Source: Patescibacteria group bacterium
GTDB lineage: Bacteria; Patescibacteriota; Patescibacteriia; Patescibacteriales; UBA12465
Direction of reading: 5' to 3'
NCBI GenBank assembly: GCA_041651355.1
Contig: JBAZJK010000001.1
Coordinates: 683,888-747,887 of the forward strand
DNA: 64,000 nucleotides
This document shows positions 6,874-59,978 of this stretch, in pieces. Both the position numbers and the translations under genes were made by a program. Numbering within the stretch: position 1 is the stretch's first letter; the number at the start of each line of letters is the position of its first letter. The notes under the pieces were generated by a model. That model was not told the origin of the DNA. It saw only the letters and a list, made by a program, of their open reading frames with translations, and ran no database searches.

Positions 6874-8532
6874 TTATAAAATACTCAGCAATTCATCACC
6901 CTTCATCAATTTGAGCATTTCTTCGGTGTCCAGGGACAACATCCGGTCATCATCCATGGCTTTAATGTGTTTACGGATAAGCGAATAGGCAGCCCCGGTC
7001 ACCTCGCCCAAAGTATCGCAACCATGAACAGCCAACTCTTTCTCAGTTAAGGAAATGCCCTGGCAAGCAGCCAATATTTCACAGGCGATAACAAAACGGG
7101 AGTTGGCTAAAACCTTGTGGGCGTGACGCGCAGAAATCGTGCTCATGCTAACGTAATCCTCCTGATTGGCCGAGGTTGGGACAGAATCAACCACTGAAGG
7201 ATGACACAGCACCTTGTTCTCGCTAACCATTGCGGCTGTCGAGTACTGCAGGATCATGAAACCCGTATTCAAATCCTGGTGGGTCAAACCGGCCAAATCA
7301 CTGGGCAGACCATAACTGGTGCCGGTCATGGTTAAGGCATAAATACGGCGATCGGAAATGTTTGCCAGCTGCTGCAGGGCGATTTTCAAAAAATCCATGG
7401 CTTGCCCCAAAGGTTCACCATGAAAATTACCACCGGACAAAGCTTCGAAACCGCCATCAGGTTTAGGGAATATCAAGGGGTTATCAGTGGCAGCGTTGAT
7501 TTCATCGGTAAAAACACGTTGAGCATATTTAAAAGCTTCATAAGCGCTACCGGCTACCGGCGGATACGCCCGGAAAGAATAAGCATCCTGAACGCGTGGC
7601 ACCGGCTTTCCGCCTTCATCATACTTTTTAGTATGAGCGTCAACTTCTGCTTTCAGAGGCACATCTTGTGATGCTTTCGTCATTCTCTTTGAACCAGCAG
7701 TAAAACGTAAGATGGTTTTAGCGATTTTAGCCGCTCCCTGATGATTGCGGGCACCGATCAATCTCTCATCAAAGGCTGCTTTTTCACCTCTGATGGCTTC
7801 CAAAGACAAAGCGGCGGCCAGATCCGAAAACTTAAACAATTTTTCCGCGTCATAAATCGCCAGTAACCCTAAAGCCAGGGTAAAAGTTGCGCCATTTGTC
7901 AGCCCCATTGCTTCTTTAGCCCTGAGAACCAAAGGTTTGATTTTGTGAAGTTTCATAGCTTCAGGGGCTGAACAAATAGTCAGAAAGGAGTCATCATCTT
8001 CTGCCCAAACATCCTGTCCGGGCAAACCGGTTAGAGCAGCAGCCACATGGGCTAAGGGGGCAAGATCGCCGCTTGAGCCAACCGAACCCTGCTCCGGTAC
8101 ACAGGGGATTACACCTTTGTTGTAGAATTCCAGAATTTTTTCACAGGTTTCCAGGCGCATACCCGAACAACCGGTAGCGAAAGAATTGACCCTTAATATC
8201 ATCGCAGCCCTGACAACCTCTTCCGGAAAATAATCCCCGGTTTGGACGCAATGAGCTGGGATATAATGCTTTTGATAAGCATCGATTGTTTCGGTGGGCA
8301 GAATCGTACCTTTCTTGATACCACATCCGGTATTGACTCCGTAAATGATGTCACCGGCAGCGATTCTTTCTTCTAAGCCGGCCCGCTGTTTTGTAATTCT
8401 TTCTTTTGCATCATCCGATAAGGTCACTACCGGATAAAGATGATCGCCAGTTTCGTCGACGTAGCCGCGAGCAATCAAAACAACCTCTTCCAAGGTCAGA
8501 GTGCTGCCCGTAATAATAACTTGTTTTTCCAT
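6874..8532 (-). CDS. hutH: Aromatic amino-acid ammonia-lyase family protein, most likely histidine ammonia-lyase (HutH-like); the MIO triad reads Ser-Ser-Gly
   Basis: Family-wide similarity: GSVGSSGDLAPLAHVAAALTG, GGNFHGEPLGQAMDFLKIALQQLANISDRRIYAL and NPLIF. A urocanase gene is adjacent. Confidence 0.8.
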   Translation of the reverse strand: MEKQVIITGSTLTLEEVVLIARGYVDETGDHLYPVVTLSDDAKERITKQRAGLEERIAAGDIIYGVNTGCGIKKGTILPTETIDAYQKHYIPAHCVQTGDYFPEEVVRAAMILRVNSFATGCSGMRLETCEKILEFYNKGVIPCVPEQGSVGSSGDLAPLAHVAAALTGLPGQDVWAEDDDSFLTICSAPEAMKLHKIKPLVLRAKEAMGLTNGATFTLALGLLAIYDAEKLFKFSDLAAALSLEAIRGEKAAFDERLIGARNHQGAAKIAKTILRFTAGSKRMTKASQDVPLKAEVDAHTKKYDEGGKPVPRVQDAYSFRAYPPVAGSAYEAFKYAQRVFTDEINAATDNPLIFPKPDGGFEALSGGNFHGEPLGQAMDFLKIALQQLANISDRRIYALTMTGTSYGLPSDLAGLTHQDLNTGFMILQYSTAAMVSENKVLCHPSVVDSVPTSANQEDYVSMSTISARHAHKVLANSRFVIACEILAACQGISLTEKELAVHGCDTLGEVTGAAYSLIRKHIKAMDDDRMLSLDTEEMLKLMKGDELLSIL

Positions 8533-8534
8533 GG

Positions 8535-9941
8535 TTACATTGTTTTGGAAAGTGAAATAAAATAATCGCTCATTCTTTCTGTGGGGACTTCAGTTTGTTC
8601 CCTGGTAAAAAGATTCTTAACCTTGATTACATCGTGATGAATTTCATCGGCGCCAGCGATAATTACGAATTTAACATTTTGGCTAACAGCAAAGTTAAAT
8701 TGGGATTTGAAGGTTGTGTCCTCTAACAAGCAAAGCTCAGCCTTTAAGCCAAGATCACGCAATTGCTTAGCTAAACGCAAATAATAAGAATCGTGGCTAT
8801 TAGTTAATCGAAGAATCAGCACCTCAGCCGTCGTGATTGATTTGACTTTCACGAGTTCAAGCTGCTGTAAGGCGGCAAACAAACGGTCGACGCCAATCGA
8901 GGCGCCAACCGCGGGTAATTCGCTCCCAGTAAATCGGGCTACTAAATCATTGTAGCGACCGCCAGAAAAAACACTGCCAAATTCCGGAGCGTCTACTAAG
9001 ACGCTTTCGAAAACTGGACCGGTGTAATAATCTAGACCGCGAGCGATGGAGAAATCTATTTCAACTGTTCCTTCGGGTACTCCAAAATCTGACAAATAAG
9101 AAATAATTTGTCTCAACTCAGATATACCCTCTTGAGCAATTGAAATTCTGTGGAAGACGGCCTCAGCCTGGTCAAGCTTAATGGAGTTGCTGCCACTAAT
9201 CTCTAAAAAACGAGAAATCCTTGTAATCGCATCCGGCAATAAACCAGGACTTGGATCATATTCGTTCTCCGGAGTCATTTGCAGCTCAGATAAGACTTGA
9301 TTGAAGCCGATTTTAGGAATTTTATCCAAAATTCGCATTACCTCTTTTGTAATATCGTCAGCGGAAACCTGGCCTCTGCCAGACACCCCTATCAACTCTG
9401 CTAAACCGTTTAAGATCTTGCGGTTATTAATACGAATTAAGAAGCGCTTTAAACCTAAAGCGGATAAGGTTTGATAAATAATAGCGATAATTTCTGCATC
9501 TGCCAGCATAAGAGAAGAACCGGCAATGTCGACATCAAACTGATAAAATTGGCGATATCTCCCTTTTTGAGGGGAATCACTACGGAAGACTGGTCCTAAG
9601 ACCATGCGCCGCCACGGTAATTTTACCCCCTCTCTTTTCTTGTCGTTATAAGGATTGGCTGATAAAAAACGGGCGAATGGTACCGTATGATCGAACCTTA
9701 AAGATAAATTATCTTCATTACTACTTCCACGGCTTTTTACCTGGAAAATGTTTTTCGAAGTTTCATCTTCACCGACTAAAACTTTAGAAAATTCTACCAT
9801 AGGCGTCTCAATCGGATTATAACCAAAGGAACGAAAAACTCCATTAATTATTCGCAGCATCTCTTCCCTGGCCAAAAATTCGCTGGTGTTAAAATCCAGA
9901 AACCCGCCAGGCTTTTCTGGTTTGATTTTGTTTGCTTTCAT
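8535..9941 (-). CDS. Histidyl-tRNA synthetase-like paralog (class II aaRS, HisRS family) with a divergent histidine-binding motif
   Basis: Motif 2 QKGRYRQFYQFDVDIAG, motif 3 GGRYNDL, GASIGVDRL, and a C-terminal anticodon-binding domain (VKFVIIAGADEI). It has RFDHT where canonical HisRS has RPEGT. Its stop lies 2 bp upstream of the hutH-like start, so the two are probably co-transcribed. Confidence 0.7.
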   Translation of the reverse strand: MKANKIKPEKPGGFLDFNTSEFLAREEMLRIINGVFRSFGYNPIETPMVEFSKVLVGEDETSKNIFQVKSRGSSNEDNLSLRFDHTVPFARFLSANPYNDKKREGVKLPWRRMVLGPVFRSDSPQKGRYRQFYQFDVDIAGSSLMLADAEIIAIIYQTLSALGLKRFLIRINNRKILNGLAELIGVSGRGQVSADDITKEVMRILDKIPKIGFNQVLSELQMTPENEYDPSPGLLPDAITRISRFLEISGSNSIKLDQAEAVFHRISIAQEGISELRQIISYLSDFGVPEGTVEIDFSIARGLDYYTGPVFESVLVDAPEFGSVFSGGRYNDLVARFTGSELPAVGASIGVDRLFAALQQLELVKVKSITTAEVLILRLTNSHDSYYLRLAKQLRDLGLKAELCLLEDTTFKSQFNFAVSQNVKFVIIAGADEIHHDVIKVKNLFTREQTEVPTERMSDYFISLSKTM

Positions 9942-10045
9942 AGTCTGTTTTTATGGTTGTTATTCAATTTTCAAAGATAAAATACAAAAAATGTATTCCC
10001 CTTATATTAGGATAAAGCTGGAATAATGTCAACACAATAAAAAAG

Positions 10046-10078
10046 AGCCCTATTAAAAAAATAGGACTCAAAAAATTA
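10046..10078 (-). terminator. Rho-independent terminator downstream of hutU
   Basis: Minus-strand hairpin gagtccta-ttttttta-atagggctc (one G:U pair) followed by T6. Confidence 0.4.
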
Positions 10079-10095: not shown

Positions 10096-12111
10096 TCAAT
10101 ATACCAAATTATCTAGTAATTGTTCATCAACCAGATAAGGAATGGTGATCTGACCATTGGCTTGATGTTTATTATTCCAAAGTGCGGCTGTTTCCATAGC
10201 GCCTTGACTTCTAGCCCAACTGCGCCGAGCGATTCCACACATGACGTCCCAAGACAGGCTGCTTTTTAAAACTTCATCTACTCTTTGACTGCCATCCAGA
10301 AAAATACCATTGCCTCCATTACTAGATCGTCCGATGCCAACGCCACCGCCGTTAGATAAAACTACCAAAGTCATCCCTCGAGCTATATTACCAGCAAAAC
10401 ATTGGGTAGACATATCAGCTGTCGGTCTACTACCATCGTAAATATTAGCAGTTTCCCGAAATGGTGAATCGGTTCCAGAAACGTCATGATGATCACGTCC
10501 AATCATAATAGGGCCTAAGCGACCATCCCTAACCGCTTGGTTGAAAGCCAAGGCGATATTTATCCGTCCTTCTTCATCAGCATAGAGAATCCTGGCTTTA
10601 GTACCGACTACTAAATCGTTGTTTGCAGCATTAGCAATCCAATGATAATTATCGTAATGAAGAGGGCTTAGGGATGGGTCTATTAAAGACATAGCTATTT
10701 GATCTGTCAAACGAAGATCTTCGTCCTTATGACTAAGACAGACCCAGCGGAAAGGACCAAAACCACGATCGAAGCAAACCGGACCCATGATATCTTCAAC
10801 ATAAGAAGGCCAGATAAAACCATCGTCAGTATTGACTTGGTTTTTGGCGATAGTCTTTTCTCCAGCCTGAAAAATGGAATTCATGAAATTATTACCATAA
10901 TCCCAAAAATGCGCCCCCTTAGCGATTAATCTCTCTATAACTCGGAAATGACGAAACAAAGATCTATTGACTAAAGCGATAAAATCGCTCGGATAATGTT
11001 TGAGCAACTGGCGGCCAGATGCAAAATCTAAACCGGCAGGAGTATAACCACCTTCGTAAACGGCATGGCAAGAAGTTTGATCGGAAAAAAGCTCAAAGAA
11101 AAAATCGTTTTCATCTAAACCCTCTAAAAGATCAACTATATTACCATAATAAGCCAGGGCTAAAGGCCGACCAGCATCCTTACTTTCTTTAGCTTTCTTC
11201 ATGATAACTGACAAATCATCAGAATAATCATCAATAGACTTTTGCTTCAGACGTAACTGAATTCGGCTATAATCGACTTCCGCAATAATGGCTACCCCTC
11301 CGGCAATTTTAACCGCCTTAGACTGGGCACAAGACATCCCCCCGAGTCCGGAAGACACAAAACAAATGCCTTGTAAATTTTTATCTTGACCCAAGCCTAA
11401 ATATTTACGAGCGGCATTTAAAATTGTTATGTAAGTTCCGTGAACAATCCCTTGCGGGCCAATATACATCCATCCGCCAGCTGTCATTTGCCCATAATTG
11501 GAGACACCCAAAGCAGCTAAACGCTTGAATTCGGTGATATTATTCCATTCTCCAACTAACAATCCATTAGTATTTATGACCCGAGGCGCTTGAGGCGAAG
11601 ACGGGAATAGCCCAACCGGATGTCCAGAGCTGACAACCAAGGTTTGGTCTTCTTTCATTACTGATAGATATTTTTTAACTAAAAGATATTGCATCCAGTT
11701 CTGGAATATCTGGCCAGTCTCTCCATAGGTGACCAACTCATAAGGATAAAGCGCTACCCCGAAATCAAGATTGTTATCAATCATGACTTGCAGAGCGCGG
11801 GCAGCTGGTATGCCTTCATACTCATCAATAGGCTTGCCGGCAATTCTACCTTCCGGTCGAAAACGGTAACCGTATATACGACCCATAGTTCGCAATTCTT
11901 TCAAAAACTCGGGAGCAAGAATCGAGTGTAATTCTTCTGGTAAATACCGCAGAGCATTAGCTATTGCTAATTTGGTTCTTTCTGGATCCAATGTTAAACC
12001 ACGATCTGGAGCGCGAAGTTGCCCTGGATCGAATGTCTTAACCGGCGGAAGCTCATTAGATAATTTAATATCCATGGCTTCAAAAACTTGAGGATTTGTT
12101 AAATTTTTCAT
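10096..12111 (-). CDS. hutU: Urocanate hydratase (urocanase), long form of 671 aa with an N-terminal extension of about 90 aa
   Basis: YGQMTAGGWMYIGPQGIVHGTYITI, GLGGMSCAQ, FDQTSCHAV, IGRDHHD and GGGVGIGRS; these are near-diagnostic urocanase motifs. Confidence 0.9.
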   Translation of the reverse strand: MKNLTNPQVFEAMDIKLSNELPPVKTFDPGQLRAPDRGLTLDPERTKLAIANALRYLPEELHSILAPEFLKELRTMGRIYGYRFRPEGRIAGKPIDEYEGIPAARALQVMIDNNLDFGVALYPYELVTYGETGQIFQNWMQYLLVKKYLSVMKEDQTLVVSSGHPVGLFPSSPQAPRVINTNGLLVGEWNNITEFKRLAALGVSNYGQMTAGGWMYIGPQGIVHGTYITILNAARKYLGLGQDKNLQGICFVSSGLGGMSCAQSKAVKIAGGVAIIAEVDYSRIQLRLKQKSIDDYSDDLSVIMKKAKESKDAGRPLALAYYGNIVDLLEGLDENDFFFELFSDQTSCHAVYEGGYTPAGLDFASGRQLLKHYPSDFIALVNRSLFRHFRVIERLIAKGAHFWDYGNNFMNSIFQAGEKTIAKNQVNTDDGFIWPSYVEDIMGPVCFDRGFGPFRWVCLSHKDEDLRLTDQIAMSLIDPSLSPLHYDNYHWIANAANNDLVVGTKARILYADEEGRINIALAFNQAVRDGRLGPIMIGRDHHDVSGTDSPFRETANIYDGSRPTADMSTQCFAGNIARGMTLVVLSNGGGVGIGRSSNGGNGIFLDGSQRVDEVLKSSLSWDVMCGIARRSWARSQGAMETAALWNNKHQANGQITIPYLVDEQLLDNLVY

Positions 12112-12203
12112 GATTCAGATTTTAATATTAAACAATTTTAAAGAACTATCTTATTAACGCTTTAAAGCAATCTTAAACCCCGTCCTGACTTAAGTCAAAT
12201 ATT

Positions 12204-12234
12204 TAAAAAGCCTGTTTCTTATTTAAAACAGGCT
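12204..12234 (-). terminator. Terminator hairpin immediately 3' of tRNA-His
   Basis: Perfect 9-bp stem agcctgttt / aaacaggct with an 8-nt loop, followed on the minus strand by a T tract. Confidence 0.45.
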
Positions 12235-12238
12235 GGCG

Positions 12239-12312
12239 GGGGTACGACGGGATTCGAACCCGCGACCAATAGATCCACAATCTACCGTTCTAACCCCTGA
12301 ACTACGTACCCC
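12239..12312 (-). tRNA. tRNA-His (anticodon GUG) with encoded G-1 pairing to C73; CCA not encoded
   Basis: Manual fold gives G(-1)GGGTACG / CGTACCC-C acceptor, D stem GTTC/GAAC, anticodon stem GTAGA/TCTAT, loop TTGTGGA and T loop TTCGAAT. Confidence 0.85.
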
Positions 12313-12370
12313 GTATATTTGAAAAAGAAAATTTTGTTTCTCAATATGTTAGCAAGAAACTTAATACCTG

Positions 12371-13039
12371 TCAATCAATAATAACTGAAGAATAGAGAGA
12401 CTTCTTGCGGCCATAAAAACTAGCCCATTCTTTATCTCCATAAGAAAAATGCCACCATTCTCCGTTAAAGGGAGCAAACCCCTCCTTGAGCAAGAGACTC
12501 CTTAATAAATAACGGTTATAACGCTGTTCTCGATTTAGACCCTTAGCGAAAGCCTTGATCTTCTCCGGCTGGCTAAAATCAGCTATCCTGGTCCCCATAT
12601 CTAATTCTTGGCCATCTTTTTCAATACTTATATCTAAAGCACCGCCAGTTGGATGGCCAGCCACATCTGGTACAGCCACAAAAGCATGGACTAAACTTTT
12701 GAGTTTTTCTTGGCTCAAGTTGGGTTTTTCTAAATTTATTTTTTTAAAAACCCTTTTAAAATACTTTTCCTGGATGGCTGGGTGGCGGTAGCCATAAACA
12801 ACTTTTAGACGAAGACTGGGGTCTTTTTTTTGTAAGATTTTATTTATCCGGCGCAATTTTAGGGCCACGGCTTTTCTGACAAAAATTTCCGGACCGCTTA
12901 TCCTCAACATATCCTTCTTCTGGTAGTGACAATTTATCTCGGGACAGAGAGAATTTAAAGAAACCAAAGGATCTTTATTTTCCCCCGCTTTGATTTTCTG
13001 TAAATCGGAATATTTAAGAATTTTTCTATTATTTAACAT
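12371..13039 (-). CDS. D-Ala-D-Ala dipeptidase, VanX/DdpX (M15D) family
   Basis: VAGHPTGGALDISI matches the zinc site SxHxxGxAxD, and EWWHFSYG is the catalytic EWWH motif. Confidence 0.75.
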   Translation of the reverse strand: MLNNRKILKYSDLQKIKAGENKDPLVSLNSLCPEINCHYQKKDMLRISGPEIFVRKAVALKLRRINKILQKKDPSLRLKVVYGYRHPAIQEKYFKRVFKKINLEKPNLSQEKLKSLVHAFVAVPDVAGHPTGGALDISIEKDGQELDMGTRIADFSQPEKIKAFAKGLNREQRYNRYLLRSLLLKEGFAPFNGEWWHFSYGDKEWASFYGRKKSLYSSVIID

Positions 13040-13104
13040 AAGTTATTTAAATTTTATCATACTGTTCTTAAAAAGCCCACCTTTATAGTGGGCTTTAGTT
13101 TTTT

Positions 13105-13683
13105 CTAATCAATCTCTCCATAGAGAAAGATGCGTTGCCGGCTTTTCGACTCAACTCCGATTCCTGTAACATCTTGCACTAAACCATCAATTTCCTTCGC
13201 CCCTAAATGCTTATACATCCTTACCGAATTACTACCTTCAGCGGCTGTCCTCACAATATAATGGGATAGGCCGAAACTTTTGGCCCAGCTCCAACGCTGA
13301 CGTATCAATTCGGTTCCGATACCTAAGCCGCGAAAATCTGACAAAACTGCCAACTCTGACATATAGCAAGCGCGATTTAGCGGGATGGGCAAAGAATCTA
13401 ACCGGGAAAAAAACAAATTTTTAACATCTTCATTAGCTTCGCCTGGCATGATGTTAAGAATCGGGATACAACAACCAAGACCGATAACCTCATCACCTTT
13501 CATCGCCAATACAATGCAACCTTTTTCCAAATGGGAATCCCAGGCAGAATAAATCACTTCCTCATCAGAATAAGTCTCAAAGTATGGCGGACCAGCAAAC
13601 ACCTCTTGGTAAACCTTAATGAAAGCTGGCTGATACTTCAGCCCATCCTTACGACTCAAAATCAGATAATTAATACTCTCCAT
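13105..13683 (-). CDS. GNAT family N-acetyltransferase
   Basis: YMSELAVLSDFRGLGIGTELI is an acetyl-CoA binding motif (Q/RxxGxG/A). Confidence 0.7.
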   Translation of the reverse strand: MESINYLILSRKDGLKYQPAFIKVYQEVFAGPPYFETYSDEEVIYSAWDSHLEKGCIVLAMKGDEVIGLGCCIPILNIMPGEANEDVKNLFFSRLDSLPIPLNRACYMSELAVLSDFRGLGIGTELIRQRWSWAKSFGLSHYIVRTAAEGSNSVRMYKHLGAKEIDGLVQDVTGIGVESKSRQRIFLYGEID

Positions 13684-14434
13684 CTGTAACCTCCATTTCG
13701 CTAGTTAGAATTACTTCTTTATCTTTAATTAAGACGGTAATAACCTTGCCGGTTGGTTGAAAAATCTGGCTAAAGCCTAAAACTTTAGCGGCCGCGATCG
13801 ACCCAGACCCGCAGGAAGATTCATAAAAGAAAGAGTCTACGCCTTTTACCCAGACGACCGGATCAATCTTGGCGGTAAACTCACCTTTACTGACCCAAAC
13901 TACTCCGACTGCTTCTCGGTTATCCAAGTTTAAAGCTTTAGTAATTTGCCGATGCTTGATTTCGAAATCAACTTCCGGAAAAGCGGCCTCAATGATAACG
14001 TGGACGATACCGCCTAAATCAACCAACGTCGCTGTTTGACCGATATCAACCGTCGAAACCTGCAAAGGCATTTCTGGAAAATGGCACTCCACTAAGAATT
14101 GGCGAGGAGCTAATTCAGATAAGGAGGCACGAACAGTTTTTGGAAAACCAGACATCGTAAATTCAACCTGGTTTTTACCAATCAACTTAGAGAACAAGAT
14201 GGCCGCCGCCCTAGCTGCATTACCGCAGAATTCGCCGCCGCTCATCTCAAAATGTTGGTCAGCAATTACTAGAAAGCCGGCCTGTTCAACGGATTTATCC
14301 TGGTTATCAAAAATTAAATCACGGCCGATTTTTTCATATTCGGCACGAGTTTTAGCTTTTGATAAAACCATGATAGCCGTAGCATTACCACCAGCGGCAG
14401 TAATGACATAAACTTTGTTTTCCATGTTTTTCAT
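13670..14434 (-). CDS. DapF-fold epimerase/racemase, probably diaminopimelate epimerase; likely start at an internal Met, whereas the ORF track starts at 14518
   Basis: Two catalytic Cys motifs, EFCGNAARAAA and SCGSGSIAAA, correspond to DapF CGNGARC and ACGSGA. The ORF overlaps the GNAT gene start by 14 nt. Confidence 0.55.
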   Translation of the reverse strand: MKNMENKVYVITAAGGNATAIMVLSKAKTRAEYEKIGRDLIFDNQDKSVEQAGFLVIADQHFEMSGGEFCGNAARAAAILFSKLIGKNQVEFTMSGFPKTVRASLSELAPRQFLVECHFPEMPLQVSTVDIGQTATLVDLGGIVHVIIEAAFPEVDFEIKHRQITKALNLDNREAVGVVWVSKGEFTAKIDPVVWVKGVDSFFYESSCGSGSIAAAKVLGFSQIFQPTGKVITVLIKDKEVILTSEMEVTDGEY

Positions 14435-14525
14435 ACATGAGATTTTTAAGGGTTTATTTTTGGTTTTAAAAAAGAGCGTTATTATTCTTCTGTTAAGAAG
14501 AGTTTGAATTACGATCAATGAGATC

Positions 14526-14855
14526 TTAAGCCAAACCCTTCCTAACAGTCAAATGGTGTTGATGCGCTCTAGTTCTCTTAATAATTAATTTGTAGCCATC
14601 CATACCAGAATTCAACCATTTAGAAATCCTGGCGACGGTCGCAGAGCTTAAACCCGTTTCTTGCTCTATGGCGGCATAGGACTGCTGGCCAGCTAGCATC
14701 TGAGCAGCCCGCCATCTTCGACTGAATTCTAAAATCTCCTGTTCGGTTAACAGGTCGCGAAAAAACCTTTGAGCTTCATCCAGATTCCTAAGCTTTAAGA
14801 TGGCAGAATACAGATCATTAATATAAATATTGTTTTTTGATTCTCCGGCTGGCAT
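14526..14855 (-). CDS. TrpR-like DNA-binding protein (YerC/YecD family)
   Basis: Small helical protein with RRWRAAQML...LSSATVARISKWL, characteristic of the TrpR/YerC family. Confidence 0.6.
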   Translation of the reverse strand: MPAGESKNNIYINDLYSAILKLRNLDEAQRFFRDLLTEQEILEFSRRWRAAQMLAGQQSYAAIEQETGLSSATVARISKWLNSGMDGYKLIIKRTRAHQHHLTVRKGLA

Positions 14856-21524: not shown

Positions 21525-24500
21525 TTATACTGGGCCTTGGTTGCACATCGAGGGGTTATCATGCGGGAAACAAAACTCATAGCTGGTTTTATGACAGCAA
21601 AGATAGCCGGTTTCGCAATATTCATAATTCCCGCAATTCGGCAATTTGCATTGCTTATTGCTAGTGCAAACCTTGCCTTCGGGACAACCATCGTCTCCGG
21701 TGCCAGTGCCGCACAAACCGCCACAACCGTCGGCTCCGCACTGTTTATTAGTACAATTCCTTTGACAGCATTGACCATTCTTGCAAATCTGCCCAGGCGG
21801 AGTTTCGCAAACGCCACAAGATCCGCCGCAGCCATCTGGGCCGCATTGCTTATTAGTACAATTCGGGCAACAACCTTCTCTTTCACAACCATCAACCACG
21901 TTATTATTGCAATTTTTCCAACCGACTGCACAGGTAAACACTGAATTATTAAATACCTGATGGGGATACAAGCATGTCCCATCCGCCCCGGTTGGATTAT
22001 CAAACTGGCAATTGCTTGCACATTTTAGGGTTAAGCCTCCATAGGGCGCAACCGACCAAAAATTAAAATCTTTGCAGGTCTTGCCGCCAAAATCACACTG
22101 CCCGTTAGTAACATCGCAATCGCAAACTTCGCTAATTTGATTAATAATACCGTCACCACAAGTGGCCCCGGGGGGTGTACTACCGCCAGCGGCTTGTCCG
22201 CAATCTTCCGGGGCATTGATAGGAGTTTCTAAAGGAAGGCCGCTGCTATAATCTATAGTTTCACATAAGCCATCACCTTTAAACCCGCCGCCCTTAAGAG
22301 GCGAAGAGAACACGCAATAAGAACCGTTTTTTATCGGATACACAAAATCAGAATTTGAATCACAAGAATACTGTCTGGAAATACTGCTGTTAGCCGGCCA
22401 ATCGCTAATAAGAGGCACGGAACGGGTCGTTGAGGCAATGCCGTCGCAATCCTCAAAACCATCATTATAATAACCACCCTTCCCCTCAGTGTTCGGATAA
22501 CCCTTCACCCCGTCGCCGCAAAAACTATTAATCTTCAAACTAAAAGATTTACTACTAGCGGTCTTAAAATCATTGGTAGCTGTAATCGTCACGTCATATG
22601 AACCAATATCACCGATAGTAATATTCGGAACCGCAGTATTATTATGTATATAATAACGATTTGAATCAATCTCTCCGGGGTTATTTATGGCCGCATAAGC
22701 TTCCTTATCAACGAATAAACTAGAAGAGCCAAACAAACCGCTTAACAATCTCATAAACCACGATTTTTTAGCTACTGTATTAGTATTTTTATCTTTAGAA
22801 ACCTGACTATAGTTGTTATCAAGTATTAAAGCATTACTAGAGGGCAAGCCAATGGCGGTATAGGAAATTGTATAATCACCTTGTAACCTATTACCAATAA
22901 AACAAGCATAAGGGCGGCCAACCCTGGCTTCTGCTGGACAATTAAAATCAAGAATTGGAGGGGTGACTACTATATTAAACTTGATTTTTTTAGAAACTCC
23001 ACCAGGGCCACCAACAGATAATAAATAAACTGTAGTTGTGTTGGATAAGAAGGGACCGTTAGGATAACTTCCAGTGCTTAAAGACTTTAAGTCATTTCTA
23101 TTAGACTTCATTTTTATCTCATATTTATTCTCGCCCAACCTAGTAGACGACAAAAGAGCCGGGTCAAAATCACCTAAATTTCTCCCGCCGCCAGTTTCGC
23201 GTGTTAAAGTTTTTGATAAGCTACCATCTCCAGTATAAATAAAGGAGTATTCTAGATTGCTATTCGGCTTGAGCACGTGCGTGATATCTTCGGCCTCGAG
23301 AAGGACTTGAGATTCAGAGATCTTAATCGGTATAGTGGTGGTGGTCATGGTGCCATTACCATCATTAACGGAAAAACTGAAGTGATAGTTGCCCGGATCA
23401 CCGGCCTTAGCTGCGTGCAATTTGATCTGGTTAGGATTATTAGTCATTTGCATCACTGGCATATTATCCCAGGACCAATCATCGGTAGGTACAAAATTAA
23501 AAGTCAAAGGGTTGTTTTCAGCATCAAAAACTTTGATGAAACCGTTAAATTCCTGGCCGCTAATACCGTTTAACTGATAATCAACTATCTTAGGCGGGGT
23601 ATTGGCAGCGCTGGTATTATTAATAATGGCATCAGCGCATCTAAACTTGGATAAAGCGTTGCCAGAGGTGTTATATTCATCCGGACTTTCCATACCGGCG
23701 CATAAAGTATAGGCTGAGCCATTACTGTCAGTAGAGTAATAGATAACTCGACTCATAGCTGGAAACTTGAGGTGCTTCCCGTCGGATGTCTTTTCAAAAA
23801 AAGTGTTATTATTCTTATTCCAACAAGTAGCCGCCTCAAAGCCTGGGCAATAGCCCATGGAGTCGATGGGGTCACTAAGCGTACTTAAACTTAAAGCCGG
23901 CAAGAGCACTTCGCGCCAACTAGGCCAAGTTGAAACTGTCTTGTGTTTTACGAAAGTGCCAGCATCTAAGACCGGGAAACGCTTATTGGCCGTTCGGTAA
24001 TTCGCTAAAGCTGCATCTAATTCTGACAAACGAGCCACCCGTTCAATATCTCTCGTTATTTTAGCTTTCAGGCTGGAACAAAAAACGCCGACTGAACAGT
24101 CAGTATCCGAATTACACTTTGAATCATTCTGAGGAATGCATTTATTGCGATAATCGCTGGCATCAGCGCTGCATTTATAACCAGTGGCACAATCTTTATC
24201 AGAATTACAGGGTACGGAACCAATATTGCAATTGCCTTCCAAAGAAGCCGAAGGGAAATTCTCATTAAACTTCCAATGGGAAACGATACTCCCTAAAACA
24301 TCGGAAGTTTGGGTATTAGCGGTTTGATTATATGAGATCAGATAAATATTAGTATATATGGTGGTGCCGATAACATTGGTCGCGTTTACATAAACTGTCC
24401 GGCCATCGCGGATTGCTTCATAGCCATCAACCGTCAAGGCTTGGGGGGAGCCTTTGAAGCCCTGCTCTTTATACCAGCGGGAAATCGAATAATGATGAGG

Positions 24501-24632
24501 ATTAGGTAGCACTCGGACCGCAATGGCGTCGGAGCTGTCTTGCTGGGCTCTAGTTAGCGGAGAAAAAAATAATAGGCTACCGAAAATAAAACCCAAAGCA
24601 AGAAAAAAAATTATAAATTTATGTTTTGACAT
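21525..24632 (-). CDS. Giant secreted cysteine-rich protein D (about 1,035 aa from the signal-peptide Met; the ORF track extends to 24689)
   Basis: Signal peptide MSKHKFIIFFLALGFIFGSLLFFSPLTRAQ. Contains CGDGVKGYP...EDCDG and CGDGIINQISEVCDCD (DUF4215-like). The C-terminus has tandem NCTNKQCG[PA]DGCGG[SL]CG modules and many Cys. Confidence 0.7.
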   Translation of the reverse strand: MSKHKFIIFFLALGFIFGSLLFFSPLTRAQQDSSDAIAVRVLPNPHHYSISRWYKEQGFKGSPQALTVDGYEAIRDGRTVYVNATNVIGTTIYTNIYLISYNQTANTQTSDVLGSIVSHWKFNENFPSASLEGNCNIGSVPCNSDKDCATGYKCSADASDYRNKCIPQNDSKCNSDTDCSVGVFCSSLKAKITRDIERVARLSELDAALANYRTANKRFPVLDAGTFVKHKTVSTWPSWREVLLPALSLSTLSDPIDSMGYCPGFEAATCWNKNNNTFFEKTSDGKHLKFPAMSRVIYYSTDSNGSAYTLCAGMESPDEYNTSGNALSKFRCADAIINNTSAANTPPKIVDYQLNGISGQEFNGFIKVFDAENNPLTFNFVPTDDWSWDNMPVMQMTNNPNQIKLHAAKAGDPGNYHFSFSVNDGNGTMTTTTIPIKISESQVLLEAEDITHVLKPNSNLEYSFIYTGDGSLSKTLTRETGGGRNLGDFDPALLSSTRLGENKYEIKMKSNRNDLKSLSTGSYPNGPFLSNTTTVYLLSVGGPGGVSKKIKFNIVVTPPILDFNCPAEARVGRPYACFIGNRLQGDYTISYTAIGLPSSNALILDNNYSQVSKDKNTNTVAKKSWFMRLLSGLFGSSSLFVDKEAYAAINNPGEIDSNRYYIHNNTAVPNITIGDIGSYDVTITATNDFKTASSKSFSLKINSFCGDGVKGYPNTEGKGGYYNDGFEDCDGIASTTRSVPLISDWPANSSISRQYSCDSNSDFVYPIKNGSYCVFSSPLKGGGFKGDGLCETIDYSSGLPLETPINAPEDCGQAAGGSTPPGATCGDGIINQISEVCDCDVTNGQCDFGGKTCKDFNFWSVAPYGGLTLKCASNCQFDNPTGADGTCLYPHQVFNNSVFTCAVGWKNCNNNVVDGCEREGCCPNCTNKQCGPDGCGGSCGVCETPPGQICKNGQCCQRNCTNKQCGADGCGGLCGTGTGDDGCPEGKVCTSNKQCKLPNCGNYEYCETGYLCCHKTSYEFCFPHDNPSMCNQGPV

Positions 24633-24651
24633 ATTTGAAATGATGCTAATT

Positions 24652-27600
24652 TTATCGTAAACCTCCGCCTCCGGCCTGCTCATATTCACAGGTATCCCAA
24701 TCTAGAGTATTTTTATTAAACCAATTACTCTTACAACTATATGAACAGTTAGAAAGACTGCAACTACTATCATTATATATCGGGGGCTTGGTAGCGGATA
24801 GATCCCATGACGTACAGGTGGTACCGTTGAAACTTATACAAGGGACAGAAAATACAGGGCTAGTACAAAAATTTACGTGATTAAAATTAGTATAACCCTT
24901 TGTCTGGTAAAAAGATTGGTATTCCGTGCTGCCGCAAGCGACATCTTTATATAGCCTACAATCTGAGCCACAGGTGAAACTGCCCTTCCCGGGGCCATCG
25001 CACTGTTCGTTGCCATTAATCACGCCATCGCCACAGCGTTCACAAACACCGCTATTGCAATTATAACTTCCAGGGCAAGTTTGCCCGCAGTCACCACAAT
25101 TTGTCTTATCGTTGCCCTGGACATTCGTTTCACATCCATCTTTAGCGCCAGTACAATCTTTATAGGGAGCATTACAACTATAATAACAAGCATTCAAAGG
25201 ACAAGTGCTGTTATTATAGACTGGGGGCAGCGTGCTTGAATACTGCCAACTGCCTGCCGGGCAATTATTGCTAATGTTATATTTACCATTTTCACAATAA
25301 ACTTTAAAAACCACGGCTGAAGACCCGCAAAAATTCATGCTAGACCAATTACTATAACCATTAGAAGACCAATAAGTCTGATATCCAGGACTAGTACAAG
25401 CAACTTGTTGATAAACTTTACAAGTCTCGTTGTCGCAGTATAAACCTCCGCCAGGATCAGTACCATCGCATTCTTCATTACCGTTCTTCACGCCATCGCC
25501 GCATCTCTGGCAGCTGCCGGCTATACATTGATATGACCCCGAACAAGTAGAATTAGGGCCGGTACAAGCACCACAATGATTTTCATCACTACTTAGGTCA
25601 ACCTCGCAAGTATCGATATCCTGCCCGTTACAATTACCTTTGCCAGCCTTACAATTATATTCGCATTGCTTATAGGCATTGCAAACGCCATAAGGATCGG
25701 GAGAAAAAACAGGATTTTGAGTTGGCCCCCAAACACTACAATAAGTCTGGCCTCCTTGGACAGCTGACCCGCTACAAATCTGAGTGTAAGTGCCACAGAA
25801 AAAATTTATATTATTTAAATTAGAGTAACCGGAATCTGCGCAAGACATAGTCCTAACTATTTTACAATCTAAATTACAGGACAAGGACGGAGTTTCGCTC
25901 TTAAAATTGGGGCTGGAATTATAATCGCATTGTTCTGACCCAGTCACAAAACCATCGCCGCAACTACCCTCCTTACATACTTTATTGATTGGATCCCATT
26001 CATAGCCTGGACTACAAGCACAGGAACCGCTCTGGCAAAAACCATGGCTACCAAAACTACCATTGTTACATTTATTACCGCACGTGCCGCAATTTAGCAG
26101 GTCATGCTGAAGATCTACGCAAACACCGCTACATTCGCCAGAGGAACAAGCGCAGGATCCATTAACACACTGGCTCAAAGTCGGACAAGCGTTATTACAT
26201 GCGCCGCAGTGGCTGTTGTTAGAGGCGGTATTTATTTCACAACCATTAGCAGTATTTTCGTCACAATCACGGTAACTCCCGGAACAATCGCAAGATTTGC
26301 TGGGCCAAGTGCCAAGACAATCATAGTTCTTACCTGTATCGCAAGCTTGGCCACAGGCGCCGCAGTTGCTAAAATTGCTCAGACTAGTCTGACAACCGAC
26401 ATCGGTGCCACATTTGCCAAAAGGTTCATTCGGATTGCATTTAAACCGGCAAGTAGTTTCTGATCCTTGGATGTTATATTCGGTCACCAAATCTTTAGGC
26501 GGGTTAGCCTCCCAGGCGCCACAAGCATTATTAGCGCCATTAGCGCCGGTGCATTTAATGTTATATCCATTCACAGAATTAAAAACATTATAACCGGCCG
26601 GAAGGGCGGGACAAGAATAGAAATAATTTCCATATTTACAATTTTCCGTACAGCCAGAACTCGCATTATTATTACCAGAACCAAAATCACATTGTTCCGG
26701 ACTAGTTACCAGGCCGTTGCCACAGATAGGAGCTGAGCATGAAGCGTTGCTACTGCCCGCCCCAGACCCAAAACAAGTCCAAATATACTTGCCTCCAGAA
26801 GGAGTGACCGCTGAAGCGCTCCCGCTGGCACAGAGTCCTGAGGTAGGCGTAGAAGTAAGCGGCAGGTTATGGGCCTCACCGCACACTCCGCTAGACCGAC
26901 GAGTCGCCGAACAATTGACTGGGCTACCGTTATTGCCATCACAACTCCAATTCCAGCCGGCAGAGTTGGAAACAAAATCTTTGACGGTCCCTACACCACA
27001 GTTGCCCGCATCATAATAAGTCAGGCTAGTTAAATCCTTGCCATTGTTAGCCCCGCAAACCGGAGTTACTTTACAATCGCTCCACAGACAAGCATCACAA
27101 GTTTTTTTGCCAGAAAACCCACTCCAAACACAATCCTGAGGCTGAGGCCAAGCTCCGCTAGAATCTTGTTCACACTGCTCACGGCCTTCCAGTTGCTTAT
27201 TACCACAAGCCTGAGAACCTATATTGCAATTCCCTAGATGACAACCCGCTTCACAATTAGTTGTTCCTGAGTATAAACCGAGATTGCAATTGAAAGATCC
27301 CGAGCCGTCACAAGCTTCAGGACCGTTAGTAATTCCATCGCCGCAAGATTCGGCTGCTTGGCAAGCATTCCAAGCCCGGCAACCATCAGTTTCGCTGCTG
27401 CTAACGCAAGTCTGCTGCCCCCTATAACTACTGCCTGATAAAATACAGGCTTTCGAATTATTATCGCAAATCTCATTATTACCCGGCTCTATCAAGCCAT
27501 TACCGCATTTATTAAGATTGCCGAGATCAAGAGCGATCGGCTCAGATTTATTACTCTCGACTCCATTCGCTCCAATAGCGCTCAGGGCAAAATAATGGAT

Positions 27601-28008
27601 TTTAGGACTCATCTGGCTATAATCAAATTCGATATTAGAAGCCTTGAGTTGCGAATCATATGACTCGCTATAGACGCCCGACTCTACCCCGTGATACAAG
27701 CGATAGAATTGGGTGCTGTCGTTATTTGGCGTCCAGAAAAAGTTGATCGTCTTAGAACCAGCCGCTAAAGCCGCGCTCAAGCCCAAAGGAGGCAGGGCAT
27801 TCTTCTTAACTAGATTCATCCTACCGCTATTTAGCAAGGCTTGGATTTCGGCATCGCTCTCCTTATAGAAATCAGAAAAAGTCCTTTGGATGACTAAAAA
27901 TTCCAAACCGAGGATAAAGGTAAATACTAATAACAAGATTAGCTTTAAATTATGCGGCAACATCGGCTTGGTTTTCTTTTTCCCAGCCGTACTTTTTTTG
28001 GAAGCCAT
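24652..28008 (-). CDS. Giant secreted cysteine-rich protein C (1,118 aa): N-terminal TM, an FN3-like domain, then at least six CG[ND]G....E.CD repeats in about 150-aa tandem modules
   Basis: TM LKLILLLVFTFILGLEFLVI. Repeats CGNGLIEPGNNEICD, CGDGITNGPEACDG, CGNGLVTSPEQCDFG, CGDGFVTGSEQCDY, CGDGVKNGNEECDG and CGDGVINGNEQCDG. Three long modules each end in a Cys-rich knot. Confidence 0.7.
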   Translation of the reverse strand: MASKKSTAGKKKTKPMLPHNLKLILLLVFTFILGLEFLVIQRTFSDFYKESDAEIQALLNSGRMNLVKKNALPPLGLSAALAAGSKTINFFWTPNNDSTQFYRLYHGVESGVYSESYDSQLKASNIEFDYSQMSPKIHYFALSAIGANGVESNKSEPIALDLGNLNKCGNGLIEPGNNEICDNNSKACILSGSSYRGQQTCVSSSETDGCRAWNACQAAESCGDGITNGPEACDGSGSFNCNLGLYSGTTNCEAGCHLGNCNIGSQACGNKQLEGREQCEQDSSGAWPQPQDCVWSGFSGKKTCDACLWSDCKVTPVCGANNGKDLTSLTYYDAGNCGVGTVKDFVSNSAGWNWSCDGNNGSPVNCSATRRSSGVCGEAHNLPLTSTPTSGLCASGSASAVTPSGGKYIWTCFGSGAGSSNASCSAPICGNGLVTSPEQCDFGSGNNNASSGCTENCKYGNYFYSCPALPAGYNVFNSVNGYNIKCTGANGANNACGAWEANPPKDLVTEYNIQGSETTCRFKCNPNEPFGKCGTDVGCQTSLSNFSNCGACGQACDTGKNYDCLGTWPSKSCDCSGSYRDCDENTANGCEINTASNNSHCGACNNACPTLSQCVNGSCACSSGECSGVCVDLQHDLLNCGTCGNKCNNGSFGSHGFCQSGSCACSPGYEWDPINKVCKEGSCGDGFVTGSEQCDYNSSPNFKSETPSLSCNLDCKIVRTMSCADSGYSNLNNINFFCGTYTQICSGSAVQGGQTYCSVWGPTQNPVFSPDPYGVCNAYKQCEYNCKAGKGNCNGQDIDTCEVDLSSDENHCGACTGPNSTCSGSYQCIAGSCQRCGDGVKNGNEECDGTDPGGGLYCDNETCKVYQQVACTSPGYQTYWSSNGYSNWSSMNFCGSSAVVFKVYCENGKYNISNNCPAGSWQYSSTLPPVYNNSTCPLNACYYSCNAPYKDCTGAKDGCETNVQGNDKTNCGDCGQTCPGSYNCNSGVCERCGDGVINGNEQCDGPGKGSFTCGSDCRLYKDVACGSTEYQSFYQTKGYTNFNHVNFCTSPVFSVPCISFNGTTCTSWDLSATKPPIYNDSSCSLSNCSYSCKSNWFNKNTLDWDTCEYEQAGGGGLR

Positions 28009-28033
28009 ATATAATATAAAAATTAAACGCTAA

Positions 28034-31000
28034 TTAGCCGCCAGCTCCGAAACCCAAGGGCACTAGAGGTGGGCGCATATCAGTCGGAGTCACTTCGGCC
28101 GGGTCGGATAATTCACTCTCTTGGTTTTTATTGGTTAAAGCCGTTATCCTAAAAGAATATAACTGCTTGTCGCTAAGACCGGTAATAGTATATATACAGA
28201 CATAATCTAATCCGCTTTCCACACAATTATCAGACGCTAACACCCGCTTATTACTTTGAGAGGCTCCGGAAATACCATAATAAATCTTATAGGTACTAAC
28301 GCTAGTCGACTGGTCAACCGCTCTGATAGAACGCCATTGCAATTCGACCGTACCACCAATCTTTTTATCAGTAGCGCTAACTATCGTCACAATCTTCGGC
28401 TTAGCGGCCCTAAAGAAATATGATTCCTTCAAAACATTAAAGATGCACTGGCCATAAGAACCGCAAGCATCACCGCTATTAGCTCCCGTGGGGCAAGGCT
28501 CGCCGCCAACGCTGCAGATGAGGGCGCTATTTTGTCCCCTGGTCACCGGATCTTCGTTAATAGCCGGTAAATCATCGGCCGTACCTGGTTGTCCGGAATC
28601 ACGGCAATAATAGAATTTATAATTAAAGTTATTACAAGCGCCGCCAGCATCACAATTAGAATCATCTAACCAAGGACTCCAAATTCCCGAAGCTGGCACT
28701 GATGGCCAAGGATTCTCGCACACAAACACATAAACTGGGGCGGAACCAATAGCGCCGTCCCCGGCGGTGATTACTGACTTCATATCTACTTCGGCAGTAA
28801 CAGAAGTGCTGTCATCAGTCACTCCGGTCTTAGCTCGCAGCAAAGTCTTATTCTCAGCAGTCCCCCAATTAATCCCCGCTACTTGGTCGACCACATCAGC
28901 ATCATCTACGCCCCAAATCCAATCCCAATCATATTCAGATAACGGATTCAAATATTGGCCATCTTTACTTAACGCATAGGCGCTAAACGCCTTATCGCTA
29001 TCTCGTTTAGAATCAAAACTAGAATTAGTCGAATCAGAATCATTTTCGTTCAGATCATTATTGGTCGTCTGGAACAGATATGAAGAGGGAGAGACTTGGA
29101 CGTGATCAACCGTGCAGATGCCAGCGTCTGCTCCCTGCGAAGACATAGTCCGGAAAACGGAAATATATGAATTAACGTAATTTATCTTGTTGAAGGAAAT
29201 ATCCTGTCCCTCGATCGTCGTACCCCCACCCAGATTCAAACCAGCACCGTTCAAACCGGTCGCCCAATAGCTAAGGACGCCGCTATCGCTATGCAAGAAT
29301 TGATCACCTTTGACAACTATATAATATACGGTGTTAGGGTTTAAAAGCTTCTGGGGGCTAAAAATAAGGGTATCACTAGCAGATTTTTCATTGCTGACTA
29401 AACCAGGAATAGAACAATACACCTTGTCATTATTATTTCCTGGATTAGTGAAAGCGGCTAAACTGGTCTGTCTAGAAAAGACTCGGGAAATATTTCGCCC
29501 AACATAAAATACCTTATCCAGGATCCGGGCTAAGAAATTTTTAGATTTAGGTTGTTCTAACAAACTGTTATCAGCTAAGAAAGTTCCGGAGGGACAAGAT
29601 GACCCCGGGGCACGCTCCTCTAAAAGAAGCACGTTACCGGTAAAACTATTAACATCCATCGCCTGGTTGAAAGTAACTTTAATCAAGGCGTTACGGCAGA
29701 CATTTTCAGCGAGCTCAGCTGGAGTGGTCGAGGCAGTTTTAACCTCTGGCCTGGTTCGACAGCAGGAATTAATATCACAAGCGACATTGTCAGAACCGCC
29801 GCAATGTTCATCTTCAGAGCAACCGCAACATAGGCCGCGGCCAGCTCCGGAACAAGGGGCTTGATCAGCCTCGCATTGTAGTTTTAAATTTGGTTCTCCG
29901 GTGTTGATTCCGGCGCAAACGTCAGTAGCAGCGCCAACCTGACAGCAACAAGCACCGCAATCGCTAGCCCCCGCTCCGCCGACGCCGCCATTTTCAAGGA
30001 AACAACCGAAAGGCTGAGGGCAAGCGAAAGCATTACAACCGCTGGCCGTCAGATTAGAGCAAGTCATGCCTACGCCACCCGGACTACAGCTAGTCTGACA
30101 TTTATCCTGGCTCAAATAGCTACCCGTCTTATTAGCCGACGAACAATCAGGACAAGTATAATAAGCGCAATAACCGATATCAGCACCTGTTTCTATCCTC
30201 TCCTCGCCTTTACAGACATTATTACTAAAATCCCAACAACAGCTGGCGTCCATCAAACAATCATTTTCCACGCTTATTGCGGCACAATGGCTTGACCCAG
30301 GATTATCCTGGCAAGCCTGACCGCAAACCTCTGTATTTTCATATAAACCATAGGCTAAAGGAGTATTAAGGCCACATTGGCTGGGATTAGCTTGGTCACA
30401 ATCATAATAAGAACAATAGCCATAATAAGTATCTGTACTGTTCTCACTCACCCGGCCGCCACTCACATTAACGCCACGGCAAGCGCCGCCACTAGCGCCG
30501 TCGATACAGCAAGAGGCATGGCTGGCGCACAATCCATTATTCGAAGATAGGATATCGCAATCAGCGCAATAGCCTTCAGGAAATTCTGGATCGCCGACTT
30601 CGCAATATTGCCCGCTATGTCCAGAACAGTTACAAGCAGCATCCCAATCTGCCTGATTGCCACCAGGCGTCTTACAGCCAGTACATTTACCCAGACCGCT
30701 GTTTTTATCTTTAGCTGGATTAGTGTCAGAGCCGCAAGCGCCGCCGCAAGTCAAGCCGGCACAGCAATCCTGGGCCGCTTGTTCAACCCGACAACAGCAT
30801 TGACAACTAGGACTTTCATAGCATTTATTATCCGTAGCATCACAGCTGGAACCGCCAGGACAATCAACTGGCTTGGCACAGACACCAACACTGCCGCTAG
30901 TATTAAAAGCAGCGCATTCAAAACCATCGGCACAACTGATACAAGAAGTACCATTTTTATTGTCTCTATATTTATTATTACCAAGATTAATCCAGCCTGT

Positions 31001-58497: not shown

Positions 58498-59978
<1,481 letters not shown>

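Follow-up and report, generated by a model that had tools for sequence, protein, structure and literature searches.

The DNA analysed here is a stretch of 64,000 nucleotides from a Patescibacteria group bacterium (GCA_041651355.1, contig JBAZJK010000001.1, positions 683,888 to 747,887), referred to below as the window, and it encodes two members of the histidyl-tRNA synthetase (HisRS) family, copy A (8535..9941) and copy B (37966..39318). Copy A is probably a catalytically competent HisRS of the eukaryote/archaeal-like (type 2) subfamily, kept beside the bacterial-type copy B and located in a histidine island that is conserved among Patescibacteria. As an enzyme copy A is unremarkable within its known subfamily; what had not been reported before is its conserved gene context. 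An earlier note on the same DNA had proposed an altered histidine-binding motif in copy A and had considered a HisZ-like, possibly new function for it.

Subfamily and catalytic positions of the two synthetases

The two HisRS-family genes with class II motifs and anticodon-binding domains that the earlier note described were recovered with exact coordinates. Both proteins cover the full Pfam tRNA-synt_His profile (PF13393) and carry an HGTP anticodon-binding domain (PF03129; residues 374-461 of copy A, 9e-13, and residues 367-439 of copy B, 2.6e-9). With the hisS model TIGR00442, copy A scores 341.9 bits and copy B 352.7 bits, both above the curated cutoff of 286.75, whereas the scores with the HisZ model TIGR00443 are 172.4 and 140.8 bits and far below its cutoff of 271.65. 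Both copies also fall far under the cutoffs of the NF0089xx HisZ models. Copy A gave a partial match to NF009085, a model of a second HisRS type, with 242.7 bits against a 540-bit cutoff.

Among solved structures, copy A comes closest to that of human cytoplasmic HisRS (4phc, 3.5e-63) and then to Nostoc 3net and Elizabethkingia 6nhi, and copy B to S. aureus 1qe0 and to 1kmm from E. coli. AlphaFold2 (AF2) models were obtained with a predicted local distance difference test score of 78.5 for copy A and 69.6 for copy B. The top 50 Foldseek matches in the PDB were all HisRS for both models, with zero HisZ, and reproduced the subfamily split seen by sequence (best E-values 1.8e-32 for copy A and 3.5e-35 for copy B). 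Neighbour joining placed copy A beside the human enzyme and one alphaproteobacterial sequence, and copy B with the bacterial type; the tree carries no support values, and no direction of transfer between Desulfobacterota and Patescibacteria is claimed from it. Over 362 aligned residues the copies are only 22% identical, and each falls into its own HisRS subfamily; they are therefore not recent paralogs but members of deeply diverged subfamilies, and are better termed xenologs. Composition gave no signal of recent horizontal import, the island genes having 38-48% GC against 42.7% for the window.

To compare active sites, the E. coli (native numbering) and human HisRS sequences were taken from HMMER alignments and aligned with copy A, copy B and 119 homologs of each. 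The functional roles of the E. coli positions are those of the Arnez/Francklyn structures. The acid and the threonine at the histidine alpha-amino group, E83/T85 in E. coli, are D84/T86 in copy A, as D130/T132 in the human enzyme, and E99/T101 in copy B, and E. coli E131 is D138 in copy A (human D177) and E147 in copy B. The E. coli residues R113, R121, Q127, R259, Y263/Y264 and, in motif 3, R311 correspond to R120, R128, Q134, R301, Y305/Y306 and R353 of copy A and to R129, R137, Q143, R275, Y279/Y280 and R331 of copy B. The segment G285-G286-R287 is retained in both, as G327-G328-R329 and G305-G306-R307. All catalytic positions defined in E. coli are hence kept in both copies. The motif 2 and 3 positions are invariant in 118-119 of the 119 members of the copy A family and in 119/119 of the copy B family, except for the R121 equivalent in the latter (Arg in 100, His in 19). 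The HisA motif, whose role together with that of HisB has been described (PMC11363354), reads ARGLDYY (R301-GLD-Y305-Y306) in copy A and RGLSYY (R275-GLS-Y279-Y280) in copy B, and the HisB motif reads GGRYN (G327-G328-R329-Y330-N) and G305-G306-R307-F308-D, respectively.

The peptides on which the proposal of an altered motif was built (GGFLDF, RFDHT and GASIGVDRL in copy A, LRPEIT and GLAIGLERT in copy B) are all present. In the alignment, however, copy A SLRFDHTVPFARFL falls onto human SLRYDLTVPFARYL and GASIGVDRLF onto GLSIGVERIF, and RFDHT corresponds to human RYDLT. The type 2 subfamily signature is carried by copy A alone, with SLRFDHTVPFARF aligned onto human SLRYDLTVPFARY and SIGVDR onto SIGVER. 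The residues G13-F14-L15-D16, F83-D84-H85-T86 and D352-R353 are invariant or near-invariant in the 119 sequences of the copy A family (F14 in 116, L15 in 108, F83, D84 and T86 in 119, H85 in 107 and D352 in 119), which include Desulfobacterales HisRS that are not hut-linked, and the invariant Gly and Asp of the N-terminal motif are found in both copies. The motifs are accordingly read as the normal signature of the eukaryote/archaeal-like subfamily. Because the positions for histidine, ATP and catalysis are conserved in both copies, neither an altered binding site nor a HisZ-like protein is supported. The earlier description of copy A as catalytically complete yet divergent was correct in its first half, while the divergence is that of the normal eukaryote-like type. 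This is a useful negative, as such a signature is readily taken for divergence. The earlier note had further linked an unremarkable outcome to two observations, conservation of all binding residues in both copies and a recent duplication; the former was found and the latter was not.

Copy A resembles the structurally known type 2 enzymes (human HARS 4phc/4g84, Nostoc 3net, Elizabethkingia 6nhi) over its full length, with ~30-33% identity, and shares with them LRFD-x-TVPFAR, SIGV-[ED]-R, Asp at the E83 and E131 equivalents, the domain order and the fold. It differs in the lack of a WHEP domain, in a 3-residue insertion past the predicted pocket for G-1 of tRNA-His (RGSSNED versus QGGE) and in the location of its gene in a hut/tRNA-His island. 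The motif-2 loop is longer in human HisRS, whereas that of copy A has the bacterial length (SPQKGRYRQF, like E. coli RPQKGRYRQF).

One position sets the copy B family apart. The equivalent of E. coli F125 is F132 in copy A and Phe in 119/119 members of its family, but S141 in copy B, where the surrounding motif 2 reads GRYRESNQ. Ser is present in 117/119 members of the copy B family and is invariant at this position in the B-family alignment A2. Copy B also carries Y288F. The motif-2 Phe of class II synthetases reportedly stacks on the adenine of ATP, although a literature search brought up no citable source on Phe125; HisRS of the Paceibacteria type retain the Phe (QFYQFDVD). In the insertion domain of the copy B family, four invariant cysteines (C209, C212, C226 and C231; CxxC ... 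CxxxxC) form a zinc-knuckle-like pattern.

The copy A family comprises 7,945 matches at E<1e-20. Its nearest members, at 87-56% identity, come from Patescibacteria, Falkowbacteria among them; HisRS of Desulfonema, Electrothrix and Magnetomorum come next at ~60%. Standalone Desulfobacterales HisRS are 56-61% identical to copy A; the Desulfonema gene stands on its own near gatB, dnaK and grpE. Identities of the hut-linked and the non-hut clade to outgroups are 33.8/33.8% for human, 35.6/36.1% for alphaproteobacterial and 27.2/25.6% for E. coli HisRS. Neither accelerated evolution nor a clade-specific active-site change was detected in the hut-linked copies, whose three clade-specific columns all lie in the loop 41-62. 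Copy A is under normal constraint and shows no drift toward a new function. One Patescibacteria-labelled sequence outside the hut clade (P0093) is not hut-linked, so that the link to hut genes characterises the clade rather than all sequences with this label.

A conserved histidine island around copy A

The hut linkage of copy A noted earlier was borne out, as the gene is flanked by hutH and hutU (Table 1). HutH scores 449.8 and 484.8 bits, below both histidine ammonia-lyase (HAL) equivalog cutoffs (539 and 524), although its top PDB matches are all authentic histidine ammonia-lyases (6v6h, 2.8e-89; P. putida HAL). Its 4-methylideneimidazole-5-one (MIO) triad is Ser-Ser-Gly instead of Ala-Ser-Gly, and TGCG replaces TGFG. 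HutU passes its equivalog cutoff (389.4 versus 375) and has an N-terminal extension of ~100 residues to which no domain model matched. Neither hutI nor hutG was detected in the window, and histidine degradation in this genome may end at imidazolone propionate or be finished elsewhere. Nor was a hisG or HisZ-type gene found among the 35 window open reading frames (ORFs) scanned, in line with the absence of a nearby hisG that had been pointed out.

Table 1. Positions of the HisRS genes, the histidine island and putative signals in the window
Feature	Position	Strand	Remarks
HisRS copy A	8535..9941	minus	468 aa, complete class IIa, eukaryote/archaeal-like (type 2) subfamily
HisRS copy B	37966..39318	minus	450 aa, complete bacterial-type histidyl-tRNA synthetase
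hutH-like histidine ammonia-lyase	6874..8532	minus	ATG 2 nt past the HisRS-A stop codon; MIO region GSVGSSGDLAPLAH
sigma-70-like promoter match	10004..10032	minus	TTGACA-17-TAATAT (10/12), upstream of HisRS-A/hutH; consensus match only
Terminator-like hairpin with T-run	10045..10069	minus	directly after hutU, parts hutU from HisRS-A/hutH
hutU urocanate hydratase	10096..12111	minus	671 aa
hutU promoter-like site	12198..12170	minus	consensus scan
tRNA-His terminator hairpin	12234..12209	minus	consensus scan
tRNA-His(GTG)	12238..12312	minus	genome-encoded G-1 (12312) opposite C73 (12239)
tRNA-His promoter-like site	12374..12346	minus	consensus scan
M15 (VanX/VanY-like) D,D-dipeptidase-family protein	12371..13039	minus	recurrent island member
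GNAT acetyltransferase	13105..13683	minus	recurrent island member
DapF-fold racemase	13670..14518	minus	most like histidine racemases (HisR/CntK), far under their cutoffs
Trp-repressor-family small protein	14526..14855	minus	PF01371 label in orthologous loci

Putative promoters and terminators suggest three minus-strand units, namely tRNA-His, hutU, and copy A (HisRS-A) together with hutH. Scans for a T-box or another leader RNA upstream of HisRS-A or hutU, with Rfam gathering and E-value thresholds, returned only the tRNA. Upstream of tRNA-His, the racemase-like protein matches PDB 9cr6 at 1e-14 and reaches 82.8 bits with NF052224 against a 400-bit cutoff; both Cys motifs (FCGNA, SCGSG) are present, and its true start may be an internal ATG. 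The Trp-repressor-family protein is a possible regulator of the island. The upstream set of four genes (12371..14855) hints at processing of D/L-histidine or of His-dipeptides.

The arrangement recurs in relatives, whose loci are numbered with the prefix L. At all Patescibacteria loci with readable downstream sequence, hutH directly follows the A-type HisRS, with a junction of +2 (L001), -14 (L002), +2 (L003), +5 (L004) and +1 nucleotides (L007), and tblastn added further hutH-linked loci (L012, L013, L067, L069, L074, L078, L088 and L096). Paired identities of hutH and HisRS-A to the window proteins are 93/87, 73/72, 71/69, 68/67, 63/65, 62/60 and 59/56%, and because hutH identity tracks HisRS-A identity the two genes have been inherited together. 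hutU lies upstream at most loci, is inverted at L007 and absent at L001. A tRNA-His(GTG) gene adjoins HisRS-A at 7/8 of the first Patescibacteria loci and at 0 Desulfobacterales loci; hut genes are absent at the three Desulfobacterales loci. In a second tier of more distant metagenomic loci, whose HisRS are 38-44% identical to copy A, tRNA-His lies 13-100 nucleotides from the HisRS gene in ~20 cases. The M15 peptidase, GNAT, DapF-fold and Trp-repressor-family genes recur upstream of tRNA-His in relatives, and at ~40% HisRS identity two loci (L133 and L137) carry hutH together with racemase-like, GNAT, M15, HisRS and tRNA-His genes, a full set.

In the closest relative (L001:7070-11071, 87% HisRS-A identity) hutU is lost and tRNA-His lies directly upstream of HisRS-A/hutH, an arrangement that marks the HisRS-hutH pair as the constrained core of the island. 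A contig labelled 'uncultured Gammaproteobacteria' (L014, CAYSJT010000031.1) carries racemase-like, GNAT, M15 and tRNA-His genes with an A-type HisRS at 67% identity, and is probably mis-binned. Neither a hisS-hutH-tRNA-His island nor a G-1-less tRNA-His in Patescibacteria was found described in the searchable literature; searches on a hisS-hutH operon, on duplicated aminoacyl-tRNA synthetases in Patescibacteria and on tRNA-His/Thg1 in the candidate phyla radiation (CPR) gave nothing relevant. The island represents a conserved, putative operon in which the genes for an aminoacyl-tRNA synthetase and its tRNA lie with that of the lyase degrading the amino acid concerned, and strongly reduced genomes have kept it in addition to another synthetase. 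The earlier characterisation of the genome as reduced, of ~1 Mb and CPR-type, fits.

The copy B locus is conserved as well, in the order queA, signal peptidase, hisS, a small ORF and relA/spoT. In GCA_900089805.1 both types are encoded on a single contig of 831,406 bp, the A-type gene (65% identity) at ~51 kb and the B-type gene (62% identity) at ~706 kb in a locus syntenic with the window. The similar divergence of the two proteins in this genome argues for comparable purifying selection on A and B. Both subfamilies have co-existed since before the lineage of the window and GCA_900089805.1 split. The suggestion that retention of two copies implies a selected function is supported by their presence at syntenic loci in this genome, whereas its second part, a new function, found no support. 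The copy B family has a mean column identity of 71% (alignment A2), and its database clusters at >=60% identity outnumber those of the hut clade of A.

The tRNA-His 5' end and the predicted G-1 pocket

The linked tRNA genes provide a view of what copy A may recognise. States at positions -1 and 73 were called by T-loop anchoring for 35 distinct tRNA-His genes adjoining type 2 HisRS genes. The canonical G-1:C73 was found in 13/35, and the remaining 22/35 have no canonical genome-encoded G-1:C73 but U-1:A73 (8/35), A-1:U73 (3/35), C-1 with A73 (3/35) or other non-canonical states (8/35). Examples of the non-canonical genes are L004:5580-5655, L007:4997-5070, L012:9907-9982, L014:4291-4364, those at L074, L088 and L096, and the tier-2 loci L107-L144. 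The U-1:A73 and A-1:U73 states suggest an eighth acceptor base pair of altered identity. Among tRNA-His without C73, positions -1 and 73 can form a Watson-Crick pair in 11/17, against an expected fraction of 0.33 (p=0.008), which is only suggestive, as the control position -4 gives 9/17 and the sequences are related. To our knowledge, loss of G-1 from bacterial tRNA-His is known only in some alphaproteobacteria.

In T. thermophilus HisRS the G-1 pocket is formed by Gly72'-Gly73' of an RGGR segment (Tian et al., PMC4357726), and in the G-1-less system of Caulobacter it is replaced by Asp-Asp (PMC4357726). The predicted pocket of copy A is R71-G72-S73 and is paired with the canonical G-1:C73 of the tRNA in the window. 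Among HisRS-A of the hut clade, R-G-[S/G] occupies the pocket in 5/5 enzymes whose linked tRNA has G-1:C73 and in 0/7 of those whose tRNA lacks G-1, where RNS, RNS, RRQ, KNKNM, NSQ, QSRR and QGN are found instead (Fisher's exact p=0.0013, for 12 distinct but related HisRS-A). Loss of G-1 and change of the pocket coincide at L004, L007, L012, L014/L069, L074, L088 and L096. The enzymes of L067 (G:C, RGS) and L069 (A:U, RNS) are 71% identical, and those of L009 (G:C, RGS) and L005 (C/A, RNS) 73%. Because the pocket states are phylogenetically interleaved in this way, the change from Gly to Asn has occurred at least two independent times. From the parallel loss of the pocket Gly and of G-1 we infer that copy A charges the adjacent tRNA-His.

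The closest precedent for the loss of G-1 is the shift in HisRS/tRNA-His identity in alphaproteobacteria (PMC3064791), some of which have a G-1-independent pair of the Caulobacter type (PMC3064791; PMC4357726; Ardell and Andersson 2006, cited therein). The relatives of copy A resemble these in that no G-1 is encoded, that A73 or U73 is present and that the pocket is lost in step, comparable to the change from GG to DD. On the other hand, the variant tRNAs described here have G1:C72 rather than G1:U72, many of them show Watson-Crick -1:73 pairs (U:A, A:U), and the genome encodes a bacterial-type HisRS in addition. The pair in the window was considered as a G-1-independent, Caulobacter-type system and is ruled out by G-1 (12312) opposite C73 and by R71-G72-S73. 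The linked tRNA-His of GCA_900089805.1 carries A-1:U73, which fits canonical bacterial-type recognition poorly. The island also offers a natural series of repeated tRNA-His G-1 loss with matching change of the synthetase, in which the evolution of tRNA identity rules would be directly testable beyond the single alphaproteobacterial case.

Role of copy A beside copy B and other window features

With stop and start codons 2 nucleotides apart, HisRS-A and hutH appear to be one transcription unit, so that the same message would yield both of the enzymes competing for free histidine. Co-expression with HutH would keep tRNA-His charged while histidine is being degraded, and would so protect translation in an organism presumably unable to make histidine. 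Several points weigh against this picture. The physiological reason for the coupling to hutH is pure inference, and the promoter and terminator consensus matches occur at about chance density (14 found versus 12.3 expected). The co-variation of pocket and tRNA, being drawn from only 12 distinct and related sequences, is supportive but not conclusive, and no co-variation was seen between the motif-2 loop of HisRS-A and N73. AF2 confidence is low in precisely those loops of copy A (residues 47-81 and 122-128) that would touch G-1; loops of HisRS that contact G-1 are disordered in apo crystal structures (PMC4357726).

The tight, conserved and probably translationally coupled pairing with hutH is also what would be expected of subunits or partners. 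This leads to the question whether copy A could be a regulatory pseudo-synthetase, similar to HisZ or Gcn2, that senses histidine or uncharged tRNA-His and controls HutH and HutU, for instance in a complex with HutH. HisRS paralogs have turned into regulators elsewhere, HisZ and Gcn2 among them (PMC11363354), and an apparently complete second HisRS, copy B, is encoded in the same genome. Such a role is nevertheless very unlikely. Copy A shares with HisZ the HisRS-derived catalytic-domain fold and a weak profile similarity (172 bits; PDB 3od1, 6.6e-17), but stays well short of the HisZ cutoff, has no hisG in the window and lies among catabolic, not biosynthetic neighbours. It shares with Gcn2 the HisRS-derived domain and the anticodon-binding domain, but in Gcn2 the pseudo-HisRS no longer has the HisA Arg or the tandem Tyr (INEAFF) (PMC11363354), whereas ARGLDYY of copy A and RGLSYY of copy B are intact. 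Copy A keeps every catalytic residue, both His motifs and its anticodon-binding domain, it is 56-61% identical to standalone Desulfobacterales HisRS with no rate acceleration, and the pocket co-varies with the 5' end of the tRNA. Copy A may still have a dual role, as an enzyme and as a partner of HutH. An unlikely arrangement, though less so than a pseudo-synthetase, would make copy A the principal or only efficient HisRS, with copy B diverged toward a reduced or different activity. The Ser at the position of E. coli Phe125 in the B family and Y288F in copy B would agree with this, as would the fact that A, and not B, is linked to and co-varies with a tRNA-His gene, and the poor bacterial-type match of the A-1:U73 tRNA-His in GCA_900089805.1. 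Copy B, however, passes the hisS cutoff with the higher score and keeps its other catalytic residues and its anticodon-binding domain; its family is strongly conserved and forms more clusters than the hut clade of A, and its locus is syntenic across genomes.

Other systems are known to use dedicated aminoacyl-tRNA synthetase copies for tRNA-dependent biosynthesis, and the recurrence of racemase-like, GNAT and VanX/VanY-like peptidase genes even at 40% HisRS identity (L133, L137) could be taken to mean that copy A supplies His-tRNA-His, or activated histidine or an activated derivative of it, to non-ribosomal chemistry of the island such as a tRNA-dependent modification of the envelope or of a small molecule. 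This is extremely unlikely: no tRNA-dependent transferase domain (Fem, L/F-transferase, MprF or cyclodipeptide synthase, CDPS) was recognised in the island, hutH and hutU indicate catabolism, and the tightest partner is hutH, not GNAT. A bolder extension of the reading of copy A as a competent type 2 HisRS, which we consider doubtful but somewhat less so than the alternatives above, is that A and its linked tRNA-His form a co-evolving pair that in several Patescibacteria lineages has repeatedly left the near-universal G-1:C73 (for U-1:A73, A-1:U73 or an unpaired -1) while the bacterial-type HisRS persists. Two histidylation systems with different identity rules would then share one cell, the hut-linked pair would be a semi-autonomous, possibly horizontally mobile cassette, and HisRS-A might bind HutH. 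If true, a partnership of HisRS-A and HutH would split histidine between translation and catabolism.

Duplicate synthetases are usually tied to antibiotic resistance or stress. The present case resembles duplicated bacterial aminoacyl-tRNA synthetases of different origin (e.g. the NF009085 type) in having two complete synthetases of different subfamilies per genome, and differs in that one of them is in a putative operon with the catabolic lyase of its amino acid and its tRNA gene.

Two further regions of the window lie outside the island. A full-length 16S rRNA gene at 58498..59976 is not followed immediately by a 23S rRNA gene but by ORFs and tRNA-Pro/Ala/Pro, and the rRNA operon is therefore unlinked here. 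Very large ORFs of 1054, 1118, 1816 and 894 residues occupy 21525..36156 on the minus strand; they show faint matches to DUF4215, T4SS_pilin and Big_5 and probably encode surface- or pilus-associated proteins typical of episymbiotic Patescibacteria.

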